DNA from: Flaccisagitta enflata
Taxonomy: Eukaryota
Length of the DNA stretch: 64,000 nt
Reading direction: 5' to 3'
Assembly: GCA_965153355.1 (NCBI GenBank)
Contig: OZ231126.1
Coordinates: 34,596,001-34,660,000 of the forward strand
The position numbers and the translations under genes are program-made. A model generated the notes under the pieces. It was not told the origin of the DNA. It saw nothing but the letters and a program-made list of their open reading frames with translations, and did no database searches. This document shows positions 27,801 through 36,800 of this stretch, in pieces; positions within the stretch are counted from its first letter, which is position 1, and each line of letters opens with the position of its first letter.

Positions 27801-30800
27801 CTATTGATAGTTATGCAGTTAAAAAATCAAAACCTTAGATATTTTTGTCAAAAAAAATCAAAAACTCACTTACTACCAGTTGAGGCTTTCCTTGCACCCC
27901 ACTGTACTTCGTACAATATTTTGCAACATGAGATTAATCACATTCATAACATCAGTAGGTTCTTTTCACAAAAGATGAGAGAAATTCTATTCAGCGTTTT
28001 TTGCAGAGCGACAAACATACTTCCGCGAATAAGTGCGAATTAAATTTTACTTACCTCGAGTAAAATTTTACGATCCGCTTCTAGAGCATTAATTTTAGCG
28101 ATCGCTGCCTCTTTCTCCATTTCTTTCTCACATAGCGAAGTTCGAAGACGGGCGGTCGCCTCTGCATTTTTGCTCATCAACTTGTCCTTCCTTTTTACCT
28201 TTTGTAGAGACAGAACAAAGGAAAGTAATTAGATAACAAAACAAATTCCCGTTACTACAAACTAGCACTGAATAGTCAGATGACGATACTTGTCGAAGAC
28301 TGGTGGCACTACATACCTGGTCTTTCAAATCGTGGATAAGTCCTCTTGCGTCAACCAAGTCCTTCGCAGAGCCCTCATAAGCAGCGATATAAGCCTGAGC
28401 AAATGAATGAAAACGGAAACATTGGTATTCTTTTGTCATGCGCTTGTCGCGTCGCTTAAATTCGATCGAATTACTAACCTTCATCTGCTCGTCCAGCATC
28501 AGCTTGCATTCTTCCGCCGCTTTCGCTCGGTCATTTGCATTCGCCAGTTTGTCTTGTAGATGCAAGATGCACTCCTGAATAGAAGCATCCGGAAGAATTA
28601 GCGAGTGCTAATTCAGCGTCACGATAAACAAGCTTCGAAACGCGGCTTACTTCAATGCGTTACCACAAAAAACCTCACTACTAACAAAACTTTCAGGAAG
28701 ATGTCAGCCGAACGAATTTCAATCCGAAAACGATATGAGAATTCAAAAGCTCCACATTCATACGGGGTATCAAGGAGACAGGAACAATCACCTCCATGGC
28801 ACCGCCGTCCAGCCGGAGGTATCAGGCGATACCAACGGTTTCGGACGCCATCAGACGCGGATTCCCAAACATACGAACACGAATTCATCAGGTTACGTCA
28901 AATTGTATTAGAACAAAATTTCGGGGATGAACTAATTATTACTATACAGATAAAAGATCGGTTGAATACCGAAAAAAGATGAGTTGAAAGGATAATAACG
29001 ATGGCTTGAAAAGATAATGAAACTTGAGAGGACTCGGTTATTTGATGTTCACAATTTAGAGACGAGTATTGCTGAAATTGGGAAACAATCTATCACATGT
29101 GATCCCGCACAACTCTAGCTCTACAATTCGTATTACAGCAGAGAGGACGATTTCGTAGCGGAGAGACGCTCAAGAGGATTTCCAACGAGAAGCATTACGG
29201 AAAGCATGAGCAAGGGCGGATTCAAACACGAAATTCTGAAAGTGTCCCCGGAAGGTTGGTTAAGCGAAGCTACGATACGTAATCAACTCGACGTGACCCA
29301 CTGACCAAACGTCTGAGAAGTTTAGTTTGCAATCTTTTACTTTTGATGATACTGTCATTCAATCGTCAGAGGCCGAGACCGAAACTGGCGAGAAGCAAGT
29401 ATACTTCAAAGCGGTGGCAATCGTTGGAGATTTTAACGGAAACGTGGGCTTGGGGATGGACGTGGCTCTAAAGCCTACCCGGTAATTAGACATCATTACA
29501 TGTGCATAAGACCTTCATAACTTGCAACATGTATAAACGATTTATGATAGTTTCAACATCGAAGAACTAAACAGAACTGAGCATGCCTATGTAGTGGGAT
29601 CTACAATCTGATATTGAAATTGCAATACCACAGAGCAGCCCGGGGCGCGATAAACTCTGCGAACGAAAATGTGGTATCCATTCGCCGAGGACACTGGGGT
29701 GCTCAAAAGCACGGCCTTCCACACACCATATTCTGCAAGGTTTAAGTTAATTGAATGTTCCAAGCGCTAACTTCTTCAGATACCAAGCTTTTGGCACATA
29801 TACGTAACATTCACCACTATCATAGGTAAGCAGCGTCATGGACGACTTGCAAGTGCGTGTGAATCCAGCTCCTCGCGGAACGGGAATCACTGGCCCCCCA
29901 CTTGCGCGGAAGTTGCTCGAATACGCGGGGGTTCAGGATGCCTATGTCATACTACGAGGGGACGAACCAGAGCTGGCAATGTTGTGCCAGGCTATTCTCT
30001 CGGCCGTAAAAGACACGTTTACGATCTTTCAGGACAGAATTCACGAGATTCATCAGTAAGTCTAGCAAAGGTTGCTCTACTGATTCGAAGCTGACGGCAG
30101 AAGACTGCTGCCCTACCTTGGTGCAGGGTGGCAGAAACAGGGGCACACATAGCACATTGTGACTTGGAACTATAGCTTATAGATCTGATTTTGGAAAAAA
30201 AATAAGGGAATGAGGAAAAAAGAAGAAAAACAAAAATAAATCAGAATTTTTGAGGATGAAGATTCAATATAGGAACTTTCAAGAAATTAACGCTGTGTCA
30301 CAGGGGTGTATATAGTTGAGCGGCTTTTGATTTTATTCCCCCCCCTACCTTTGATTTTATTCCCCGCGACGCTTTGCGACATAATACAAAATCTATGATT
30401 TTCTTCTCCACAAAGCAATAAAACAGTATACCGTCACACGGGGCTAATCGGGACACTTTTTCTAAATTTTGCTCTGTATCTTTGAAATTCCCATAGATAA
30501 ATCCAAGCATGTTCCCCCCTTAATTACCACTGATGAAGGGCTTATTGCACGCAAAGAACCAAAATCCAATACCAACCCCTTGGGTGAGAATTTTATAAAA
30601 AAATGCCTTGTCCCGATTAGCCCCGTAGTGGGGCAAATCGGGACGCCATTACTTTACTGTGTTGTCCCGATTAGCCCCGCTCTAACCATATTTTTCGGAT
30701 TTTACCAGATCTATTATAACAAAATTGAATAAATCTTAACCCGGTCTGACTGTTATTGTAATTATGGCATGAATGTCCCTCATTAGACTTTCTCAATGGC

Positions 30801-33800: not shown

Positions 33801-36800
33801 GACCAGTTCTGTAAACTTCAATGTAGGCGTCTTCAGTGGTGGAGACGGGCCAGATGGGAATGCTGTATCGCCATTCTTGTTCGGGGACCAAATCGCGCAA
33901 GTGACTCCACTGCAGCCACGGAAGCGGAACCCTATCCCTATCATTGATCCCAACGACTGCAGTGCGCAAATTGAGAGCCTTGCAGCGTAATTTCTTTCGA
34001 GAGAACGACAACAACAGGATTCGTTAAAAACGTTTTACGCATTGGCCTTTCGTTGGGTTTCTCTTCCACACTCATTTTGAACCTTCATTGAGCCGCGTAT
34101 TACTTAAAACGGTTTTCATGTTGGTATTACGAGTAGTTAATATCGGAGAAACATGCTGTTCAGCAGTTGGTCGGTTTGAATTTCTCTAATAGCACCAGTA
34201 GTCACATTAACAAGAGGAACTTGCAAAACAGTACCCATGTTCGACTTTCGATTCAGTTGCAAAACTGACATCCTATTTTCGTGCTTGACATTCAAATCAG
34301 TTGTGAATAAATTTCGTATTTCCAAATGAAGTCCAATTTATTACAAAAACAGTCAGGGACTCAGGGGACAAAACGATAGATGAAGGTAACCTTTCGTGAA
34401 AGAACAATGCCAAGTAGGCCAATAAGGTGCAACGTGTGGATCATCGAACAAATTCTTCACCGACCAACCGACAGATGGACACAGCCAGTTATAGAGGAAT
34501 AAAGAGGTGCTTTGTCGCACCTAAAAAGCGACTTAGTACGATACACTTGGGCGCTTCACATAGCAAAGTTTGGAATTTCTTCTCGTCCCGCTTACCCAAC
34601 CATTTTTTTTTCCAAAAAAAAGTCTGCCTTTCATTTTTCTAGCAGCCCTCTTTTTTGTTGTAATTTTCATAATGCTGTAAGAGATACTGTCAGGCTTCAG
34701 TTCGCTCGTAACACCATAAACATCTTCCTGTACGTCATCTAAGATGTTCATCTGTGTAGCAAGCAACACCCACAACATTTACGTTTTTGTTTTATGGATG
34801 ATTTTTGTCCAATAAAAGATTTTTAATGGCTATTGTTAGTCTCTTTAGCAACGAAAGAGCATGGGCAAATGGGCTTTCCCACTGAATTCTATGAGAAACT
34901 TTAAGAAAAAAAAAAGAAGACAAATGAATTTTGTTAAAAAAAGTCATCTTTATGATTTTTTTCAGTCCATATTGGATTACCGGGACATAGGGATACAGTG
35001 CAAACACGTTTTTTGAAGCAGCCAAACGTTACACTGATATCACATGATATACAGTACAATGGGAGCAAAGACGACCTAGATAGGAGGATAGATTTAAGGT
35101 ATCCTAATTTCATTTGATTAATAAAAGAATTAAGATCTGGGTAAGATTCGGGATTCGCCGGGCCAAGGAAATACCCTCATAAGATGACATATAAAGTATC
35201 CTTTCTCAATCTCTTTTTTGAGAGAAGTGTCTCAAGCACTGCTTTCTGACAGAAGATTTGTGACAAGAATGATATCACTCCGGGTATTTCTACATTTTTT
35301 TGTAGGTCATAGGGATACAAATCAAAAACTATCCTTTGGAAAATCATCCCTAGAGCGCATTTTGAAAAAAAGTAAAAAATCTACAATTTTTAGCTTCATT
35401 ATACATGAATAACTTTGCAGGTTGGTCTGATTAATTTTTTGACAGCGTATAGTTAATCCTGATAAAATTCCCTTTCATTTGATAGGTCGCACTATATGGT
35501 TTTAAAAAGAAATAACATTTTCATATTTTGAGCCACCGTTACAAAAATTACAGCGGTGGCCTAAAATATGAAAACTCATTTTTAATCGAAACCATATAGT
35601 GCGACCTATCAAATAAGAGGGAATTTTATCAGGATTAATAATATGCTTTTAGAAAAAGAGTGCGACCAAATTGAAAAATTCTTTGTGCAAAATGAAGCTA
35701 AAAATTTTGAAATTTTTGACTTTTTTTCAAAATGCGCTCTAGGGATGATTTTCCACTGAATAGTTCTTGATTTGTATCCCTCTGACCTACACAAAAATGC
35801 AGTAAAACCCCGAGTGATATCATTCTTGTCCCAAATCCTCTGTCAGAAAGCAGTGCAAGGTGGTCAGGGACATCTGATAGCACTCTAGTAACAACTTACT
35901 TTCTTCAGTGTCGACATATCATTAGAATCTAAGACCCAAAAAAGGGCTGATTTGGCCAATTTCTATATGTCCTATTTAGGTCACGCTGACTATCATCACT
36001 GTAAAATTTGAGAAAAAACATAACGTGATATGAAGAAATGGCACATTTTCATTGGTCCTGGTTATGGTTTGAGGACTTATTTTTGAATTGTTTTAAAAGT
36101 ACTATTTTTGATGATTTTTGGGAAAAATTCCAATTATTGATAAAACAAGGCCGGATACACGGCTACCCTAGTCACGTGCGGGTGGGCAGGAGCAGTGCTG
36201 GAGAGGGTCATCAGGGCATTTGGGCAGGAGTCGTATGCTCAAAAAGCTCAAAAACGCCGAAAAAGTAAAAAGGGGACCAACCGACGGACCGACATAGCAG
36301 GTTGTTGAGTCGCGTAGCACGCAACTAAAAACCTCATCTTTCCTTGATTTTTTCAACTTTTTCTTTTTTGCCCGTTTTGTGAAGACAGAGTGTTCATGCC
36401 AAATTTCGTGACTTTGCCATGTCACAATGTAGAAATATAAAATTTTCAATGCGCTATAAGAAATGTGTTCACACCCTGTCACACTTATGTCACGCTGTGA
36501 TTCCTAGTATTGAGACCCGTCATAAGAAACTAGGGAAGTTTGCACTGGGTATGGTCTGAAAGAGCATCAAATTCTGCGTCTAACCCTAAAATTTCAAGTC
36601 CCTCAGTCTAGGCATTCTCGATTTATGAGTATTTTTGTGATTCCATGTCTTTAGGTGTGAACACATTTCTTATAGCTGCCTCAAGTTTTTTGATAGTCAC
36701 GCATTATTGGAGGCTTTAGGTGGTCAAACAAGGCCGGATTCACGGCTACCGAAGTCGCGTGCGGGTTGGGCAGGGGCCATTTTTGAGGTCACCAGACCAT

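Follow-up and report, generated by a model that had tools for sequence, protein, structure and literature searches.

uS5 is a single-copy ribosomal protein with a dedicated set of partners. Its mitochondrial form uS5m (MRPS5) is a long protein with extensions in addition to the uS5 domains. Paralogues of ribosomal proteins that are tissue-specific usually differ little from their parent. uS5 is described as essential and highly conserved, with a conserved network of non-ribosomal partners, and its FxxxFG-type N-terminal extension has been linked to PDCD2 binding (PMC10216425). Imp3, Mrt4, Rlp7 and Rlp24 are separate genes with the ribosomal protein folds of uS4, uL10, uL30 and eL24, respectively, and are used outside the mature ribosome; no uS5-derived factor is among the ribosomal-like assembly factors named there (PMC3814368). 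Here, we describe a uS5-like gene in a 64,000-nucleotide (nt) window of the Flaccisagitta enflata genome (GenBank assembly GCA_965153355.1, contig OZ231126.1, positions 34,596,001 to 34,660,000 of the forward strand), with all coordinates below counted from the first letter of this window. The sequence evidence points to a duplicated ribosomal protein that has been put to a different use, and a uS5-derived family of this kind appears to be undescribed in the sources searched.

The uS5-like gene lies on the plus strand at 28701–33990 and consists of ten exons, with GT..AG at every border. The joined coding sequence measures 1425 nt and has a single, terminal stop codon. Its product of 474 amino acids (aa) is identical, with no differences, to residues 19–492 of P0001, which is 492 aa long and was predicted from a transcript contig of 1829 nt. 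The 18 extra N-terminal residues of P0001 derive from an upstream in-frame ATG of its contig, and the orthologues P0005–P0009 begin with MSxERIS, the counterpart of the ATG at 28701. Transcript evidence came from RNA contigs of three marine metatranscriptome runs (X1 and X2, study P1; X5, study P2), aligned over 28401–33380. Starts, ends, strand and expression level cannot be read from such contigs, and the raw-read run X12 gave no aligned reads. Seven introns were crossed by one contig per run in all three contig runs without mismatches, at the joints 28888→29136, 29252→29368, 29480→29633, 29737→29824, 30055→32429, 32549→32650 and 32830→33214. Upstream of the start codon, the contigs extend into a 5′ untranslated region (28654–28700), beginning at 28654 in X2, 28662 in X1 and 28667 in X5, positions that do not show the true transcript start. 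The exon 8–9 junction is supported by loose contig ends at 33314 (X2 and X5) that run on into the sequence at 33641, and the sole basis of the exon 9–10 junction is identity to P0001. The uS5-like locus is a real gene of ten exons with a spliced, polyadenylated-type mRNA.

An earlier reading of this DNA (the original prediction) had proposed that the stop codon apparently closing the uS5 frame overlaps a splice donor, that this donor is joined to an exon at 32429, and that five more exons thereby add about 220 residues. The 30055→32429 joint was exact in the X1, X2 and X5 contigs, with GT..AG borders, no ambiguity and a skip of 2373 nt. Therefore, the apparent stop (CAG TAA), whose in-frame TAA at 30057–30059 falls inside the exon 5 donor, is a donor site. 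Single contigs join exon 5 to exon 6, placing the added sequence, an acidic tail of 222 residues, on the same mRNA. Contigs likewise span the joints between exons of the uS5 core, bearing out the proposal that the paralogue has introns of its own.

A word-indexed search with exon 5 retrieved ten orthologue clusters of 404–513 aa, hereafter group A, all of which contain both uS5 domains. Core and tail stand in one frame in all ten; 96 of 155 core residues are invariant, and six conserved islands were found in the tail. These observations support selection on the frame, as had been suspected from its intactness. They also bear on the reading that separate genes encode the uS5 part and the tail, or that the locus is a decaying duplicate transcribed as noise. 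The in-frame TAA directly after exon 5 and an in-frame ATG in exon 6 would be expected under that reading, and several short database fragments leave exon 5 into other sequence. However, exon 5 is joined exactly to exon 6 in single contigs of three runs, the fusion is kept in 10/10 clusters, and a tail-only search with the P0006 tail in the 275–877 aa length class returned the same ten fused proteins and nothing else, shorter stand-alone tails lying outside that search. We consider two genes or transcriptional noise extremely improbable. As for the fragments, P0012 and P0014, from two orthologues, depart from the family sequence right after ...QAY, the position of the exon 5 donor; therefore, the intron site is common to orthologues. 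P0011 and P0039, from this species, have an internal splice in exon 5 and are frame-shifted, entering the +1 frame after ...MDDL within exon 5 or directly from exon 2. This points to internal alternative splicing with truncated products, which are minor or erroneous forms.

The encoded protein has three parts, namely an arginine-rich, disordered N-terminus of about 90 residues, a uS5 core and the 222-residue acidic tail. Exon 1 (28701–28891) contains the start codon and an arginine-rich region (residues 1–63) with a conserved stretch at 28782–28859. The core, at residues ~90–244, is encoded by exons 2–5 and is equivalent to residues 95–251 of human RPS2. Exon 2 (29139–29254), joined to exon 1 in X1, X2 and X5 at 28888→29136 (cut +3), encodes an acidic linker and then the start of the uS5 N-terminal domain, which resembles a double-stranded RNA-binding domain. 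Exon 3 (29370–29481) adds an acidic beta-hairpin and the loop of this domain, and exon 4 (29634–29739) its end together with the RRGHWG...PHTIFCKV segment; both exons are bounded by RNA joints. Exon 5 (29826–30055) encodes the uS5 C-terminal domain (...AGVQDAYV) and the start of a long helix, and ends in TCA followed by gtaagt.

Several lines of evidence place the core within uS5. Exon 3 alone matches Pfam Ribosomal_S5 (PF00333, E 3.5e-5) and exon 5 alone matches Ribosomal_S5_C (PF03719, E 1.2e-9), and full-length P0001 scores above both Pfam cut-offs (40.5 and 33 bits). Among the five family proteins scored, all passed for the N-terminal domain PF00333 (34.4–45.5 bits; cut-off 27.1) and for the C-terminal domain PF03719 (30.6–34.3 bits; cut-off 21.5). 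The eukaryotic and archaeal model TIGR01020 (uS5_euk_arch) gave 99.5–106.2 bits in four of four proteins, all below its equivalog cut-off of 181.65. The bacterial-type model TIGR01021 gave 39.3–49.8 bits, under the TIGR01020 score in 4/4 proteins, unlike what a mitochondrial or bacterial-type uS5 would give. In the PDB, sequence similarity was highest to RPS2 chains, with E about 5e-34 to 1e-33 and a match spanning residues 95–251 of the 293 in the human protein. An AlphaFold2 model built on a 130-sequence alignment reached a predicted local distance difference test (pLDDT) score of 95–98 over residues ~110–270 in P0001 numbering, as opposed to a mean of 35 when only the ten family members were aligned. 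All 50 Foldseek matches listed for this model were eukaryotic uS5 chains, many with a root-mean-square deviation (rmsd) of 1.4–1.6 Å over ~150 residues and 40–41% identity. The uS5 signature loops GDxNGxVGLG, RRGx... and AGxxD are retained. The predicted core is a confident cytosolic-type uS5 fold, and with both Pfam domains present and TIGR01020 below its equivalog cut-off, the view of the gene as a diverged uS5/RPS2 paralogue held.

The core departs from ribosomal uS5 mainly in charge and in the segments that flank it. For comparison, canonical uS5 sequences were taken from the database search, 12 for charge and ten for counts of conserved columns. Across the 147–157 aligned core residues, net charge was −1 to +2 in all ten group A proteins, compared with +13 to +18 in 10 of 12 canonical sequences (+7 and +9 in the other two). 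The beta-hairpin, PVQKQTRAGQRTRFKA in typical uS5 (+5), reads SPEEAQTEMGETQVYFKA in group A (−2). Nineteen columns were basic in at least 80% of the ten canonical sequences; group A keeps 11 of these and has lost eight. Likewise, canonical uS5 has 91 conserved columns, and the majority residue is unchanged in group A at 48 of them. The loss of charge in the group A core is thus large, not total, as judged from the alignment. Mean core identity was 84.5% within group A, 43.8% between group A and the second group described below, 37.7% between group A and canonical uS5, and 72.5% for typical canonical–canonical pairs. Group A lacks three parts of eukaryotic uS5, namely the RG-rich and C-terminal extensions and the structured ...TKLGRLVK... 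segment. The TKLGRLVK segment is absent from all ten proteins in alignment A1, and the match to human RPS2 begins at about residue 95 and ends at 251 of 293, in agreement with the reported lack of WxPVTKLGRLVK.

These differences argue against the reading that the gene is merely a fast-evolving form of the organism's only cytosolic uS5. Such a protein would have to combine the charge loss, the missing segments and a sub-threshold TIGR01020 score with a role in which uS5 is essential and highly conserved (PMC10216425), and with an only moderate RNA contig depth. We regard it as barely credible.

The same data bear on a specialised ribosomal subunit, which the original prediction had offered as one of two roles. 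Here the paralogue would replace canonical uS5 in some 40S subunits, for example in germline or embryo, which would put the acidic hairpin at the mRNA entry side and the 220-aa motif-bearing tail on the solvent side, where it could recruit factors. A fold nearly superimposable on uS5 in 40S structures is consistent with this role, as are the universal loops and 11/19 conserved basic positions that are kept and the very high conservation of the core; tissue-specific ribosomal protein paralogues are, moreover, a known kind (PMC10313321). However, a net charge near zero instead of +13 to +18, the absence of the N-terminal TKLGRLVK... segment and of the C-terminal extension, and a TIGR01020 score far under the equivalog cut-off all count against it. 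A weaker point is contig depth, a measure unsuited to ranking genes: the values of 24, 120 and 26 for the uS5-like gene are of the same order as that of the non-ribosomal gene that hosts it (~51 in X2). The charge loss, the eight of 19 basic positions lost and the two missing segments weaken the proposal, and a specialised subunit now seems rather unlikely.

The tail is encoded by exons 6–10 and is acidic, with 37 aspartate and glutamate residues against 16 lysine and arginine residues in its last 219 residues. In the AlphaFold2 model, the last core helix extends to about residue 287, a further helix spans residues 363–388 (pLDDT ~82–86), and the remaining tail scores below 50. Mean conservation is 0.85 in the six islands versus 0.44 in the linkers. 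Island 1, HVRRKE..., is encoded by exon 6 (32429–32550), which is entered by the RNA joint from 30055 in X1, X2 and X5, and 14 of its 39 residues are invariant. Exon 7 (32651–32832; joints 32549→32650 and 32830→33214) encodes islands 2 and 3 and the start of island 4. Island 2 (32701–32754) contains [IMV][PAS]Q[TV]FSDF[VI]PG. Island 3 (32764–32781) reads DDDKEN here and D[DE]DKEN across the family, and DKEN is invariant. Island 4, EDAAxDxQDAxxYIEEINxI, continues into exon 8 (33216–33312) and is a predicted amphipathic helix (pLDDT ~82–86). Exon 9 (33639–33743), placed by the loose ends leading from 33314 to 33641 in X2 and X5 and by identity to P0001, encodes island 5 (33692–33739), W...D[FY]MGGGDNN. 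Exon 10 (33827–33990), again placed by identity to P0001, encodes island 6 (33907–33954), the region of the RKRNPIPI[VI]DPN motif, in which 12 of 16 residues are invariant and whose motif is common to P0013, P0159 and P0016; the stop codon TAA follows at 33988–33990.

No Pfam family matches the tail, and a search of the ESM Atlas for look-alikes of the P0006 and P0159 tails gave no usable match. A KEN tripeptide in a disordered region is the consensus of a degron recognised by the anaphase-promoting complex/cyclosome (APC/C). DKEN is invariant in 10/10 group A proteins, within a region of pLDDT <50, and was not seen in the second group described below when the alignment was read by eye. The tripeptide looks like a candidate cell-cycle degron, and the RKR motif is a candidate nuclear-import-like signal. 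Island 2 was also compared with PAM2, the motif that binds the MLLE domain of the poly(A)-binding protein. The PAM2 consensus is LNxxAxEFxP, in which Asn4 and the small Ala7 are needed, bulkier side chains being sterically disfavoured at position 7 (PMC7356810). Phe10, Pro12 and a hydrophobic position 3 fit in island 2; PAM2 was rejected because Asn is missing at position 4 and Phe is invariant at position 7.

We then consider the relatives and origin of the family. A HMMER profile search of 1.84 billion representatives returned 837 proteins at E ≤ 1e-3, headed by two full-length family representatives and several fragments, followed by P0013 and P0016 and then by ordinary uS5. A second, more distant group comprises P0197, P0016 and P0013, the last of which is known in full as the 675-aa P0159. 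Its plan is that of group A, which itself stands for at least ten related species-level clusters from marine transcript assemblies; the second group has an N-terminus rich in Gly and Pro, keeps the TKLGRLVK segment intact as EWIPLTKLGRLVK, and shows a diverged core and a prolonged last helix. Residues 1–200 of P0159 are rich in Gly, Pro and Asn and contain GFGGGN repeats, replacing the RG-rich extension of uS5. The core of the second group has a net charge of +6/+7 and keeps 14/19 conserved basic columns. Its tail carries P[IL]x[MT]RKRSLIPIVAPP, and the motif RKRxxIPIV is common to both groups. In a tree built on 156 core columns, group A and the second group were separated together from canonical uS5 with 99–100% ultrafast bootstrap support. 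This clustering, together with the shared extension of the last helix and the shared RKRxxIPIV motif, points to an old origin.

Both groups are without a name and without an NCBI or UniRef source; their members were all drawn from transcript-size contigs of JGI, Logan, ENA or 'merc', and the family appears confined to marine plankton. A scan of metagenome contigs for DNA of orthologues kept 80 loci, all of them bacterial, archaeal or ordinary S5 (best identity 42%), with no family member among them. Among the papers listed by our literature searches, none described such a uS5/RPS2 paralogue or uS5-like family, and the 'RPS2-like' matches examined were plant resistance genes.

The explanation we favour, tentatively and with a confidence that stops a little short of likely, is that the protein is a uS5-derived adaptor or regulator, in which the fold serves as a docking module and the ends recruit other factors or are themselves controlled. 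An old, DNA-level duplicate of the uS5 gene would have left the normal ribosomal job; the loss of the N- and C-terminal segments that thread into the 40S subunit, the acidic hairpin and a net charge near zero point to such a departure. The globular uS5 fold would now be a binding module for proteins that recognise uS5, or for a reduced RNA surface that does so. In both disordered ends, short linear motifs would attract other factors and keep the protein under control; the invariant KEN tripeptide, the basic RKRNPIPI[VI]DP motif and the amphipathic helix are candidates. The protein may therein act as an adaptor or regulator tied to uS5, 40S biology or translation, and probably not as a standard structural ribosomal protein. 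Of the second role that the original prediction had offered, a repurposed RNA-binding protein, 'repurposed' fits this picture; 'RNA-binding' is doubtful because the net core charge is about zero, eight of 19 conserved basic positions are lost and segments are missing.

Several points weigh against an adaptor or regulator. Eleven of the 19 conserved basic positions and the rRNA-facing universal loops (RRGx..., AGxxD) are still present in group A, and a mean core identity of 84.5% is also compatible with burial inside a large assembly, for example the 40S subunit. The clustering of group A with the second group could be long-branch attraction over 156 columns, and the candidate degron and nuclear-import-like signal are read from consensus patterns. 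It is conceivable, if on balance improbable, that the small subunit or its precursor still accommodates the protein at the uS5 site, with the acidic hairpin where uS5 normally lines the mRNA entry side and a tail bearing a degron and motifs on the surface. Such a protein would be a 40S variant that is regulated and translation-silencing or else specialised, or the first placeholder of uS5 type, in marine zooplankton.

A placeholder can also be framed more narrowly, as an assembly factor that sits transiently at or near the uS5 site of the pre-40S particle and whose tail recruits release or export factors, or as a competitor for dedicated uS5 partners such as PDCD2/PDCD2L, PRMT3 or ZNF277. The ribosomal protein look-alikes Imp3, Mrt4, Rlp7 and Rlp24 do act in assembly (PMC3814368), a conserved non-ribosomal partner network surrounds uS5 (PMC10216425), and the arginine-rich N-terminus and basic C-terminal motif could serve nuclear import. 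However, group A is without the FxxxFG-type N-terminal extension linked to PDCD2 binding (PMC10216425), the charge loss speaks against stable rRNA binding, and the family, in contrast to the universal core assembly factors, is restricted to a narrow range of marine transcript assemblies. We regard such a placeholder or competitor as distinctly unlikely and retain the adaptor or regulator as our working preference.

The original prediction had further placed the gene antisense in an intron of TAX1BP1. A 3817-nt contig of X2 contains a host-gene exon at 28478–28578 on the minus strand, with loose ends in X2 and X5, and the host mRNA joins 45357 to 28578 and 28478 to 28393. The flanking letters of the contig map once each, at 45357–45386 and 28364–28393. 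Because the host mRNA is spliced from 45357 to 28578, the uS5-like gene, whose extent was estimated from an RNA contig as 28654 to ~34320, lies antisense inside a 16.8-kb host intron. The nesting is thus confirmed, and the identity of the host is partly supported. The host exons encode a coiled coil. A frame at 3665–3934 on the minus strand matches the autophagy-receptor C2H2 zinc finger (PF18112, 31.8 bits; cut-off 23.2; E 1.9e-7); this exon lies 24 kb downstream and is not linked by RNA to the exon at 28478–28578. Across nine minus-strand frames, a subset of those present, no SKICH domain was hit, and 5′ exons may lie outside the window; for the CALCOCO coiled coil, the same nine frames gave generic coiled-coil hits only, below cut-offs. 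On the zinc-finger exon and the coiled-coil exons, a TAX1BP1/CALCOCO-like host gene is plausible.

Intron 5 of the uS5-like gene (30056–32428, plus strand; 2373 nt) consists mostly of transposon-like insertions, and two elements with inverted ends account for most of its 2.4 kb. The first is bounded by perfect 29-nt inverted repeats at 30427–30455 and 31246–31274; X1 RNA contigs skip from 30427/30430 to 31280/31283, so the insert is absent from other copies. The other is a foldback element with arms at 31748–31964 and 32055–32261, the arm size being given as 76–87 nt. In intron 7, contig depth over 32883–33048 reached 6887, 2683 and 683 in X1, X2 and X5 compared with 10–120 on exons, and many loose contig ends begin at 32897–32899; this stretch looks like a dispersed, highly transcribed repeat. 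Intron 8 contains a long (GA)n microsatellite at 33395–33511, and GA/CT and CA/GT tracts are common across the window.

Elsewhere in the window, stretches of the same GGACGGAC type as the intron 7 repeat give 'RTDGRTDG'-like frames, for example at 7748–7885, 14121–14303, 21075–21371 and 39901–40314. Long minisatellite arrays at 4217–5382 and 40807–42375, with repeat units of 22 and 19 residues, lie in introns of the minus-strand host region. An uninterrupted 807-aa frame at 53530–55953 on the plus strand has no Pfam hit and is acidic and serine-rich; its C-terminal part is Cys/His-rich (CPYC...H...C patterns) and zinc-finger-looking. Rfam, run on the whole window for intronic small nucleolar RNAs and other RNAs, gave no matches.

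Taken as read here, the family offers a natural experiment in the conversion of a ribosomal protein, in which the fold was kept almost exactly, the charge and the ribosome-threading segments were dropped, and a conserved disordered tail was gained. Continued binding to 40S or pre-40S particles would make the protein a new route to special or silent ribosomes; otherwise, it would give access to the extra-ribosomal network of uS5. The sources searched give the family no name, and it may also serve as a marker for the abundant marine plankton lineage to which it appears confined.

Set beside known systems, the protein is closest to cytosolic uS5 (RPS2, yeast Rps2), with which it shares both Pfam domains, the signature loops and a predicted fold within 1.4–1.6 Å rmsd over ~150 residues. 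It differs in a group A core that is on average 37.7% identical and close to neutral, in the 222-aa acidic, motif-bearing tail, and in the absence from group A of the RG-rich extension, the TKLGRLVK segment and the C-terminal extension. With tissue-specific paralogues such as Rps27/Rps27l, it has in common a ribosomal protein gene duplicate retained by selection (PMC10313321); unlike them, it is less than 45% identical to its parent, changed in charge and fused to new sequence. Compared with MRPS5, it matches the eukaryotic and archaeal model far better than the bacterial-type one (99.5–106.2 versus 39–50 bits), and its extension is C-terminal and acidic. Like Imp3, Mrt4, Rlp7 and Rlp24, it is a separate gene with a ribosomal protein fold. 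Unlike these four, which are universal in eukaryotes and bind pre-ribosomes, the uS5-like family is lineage-restricted.

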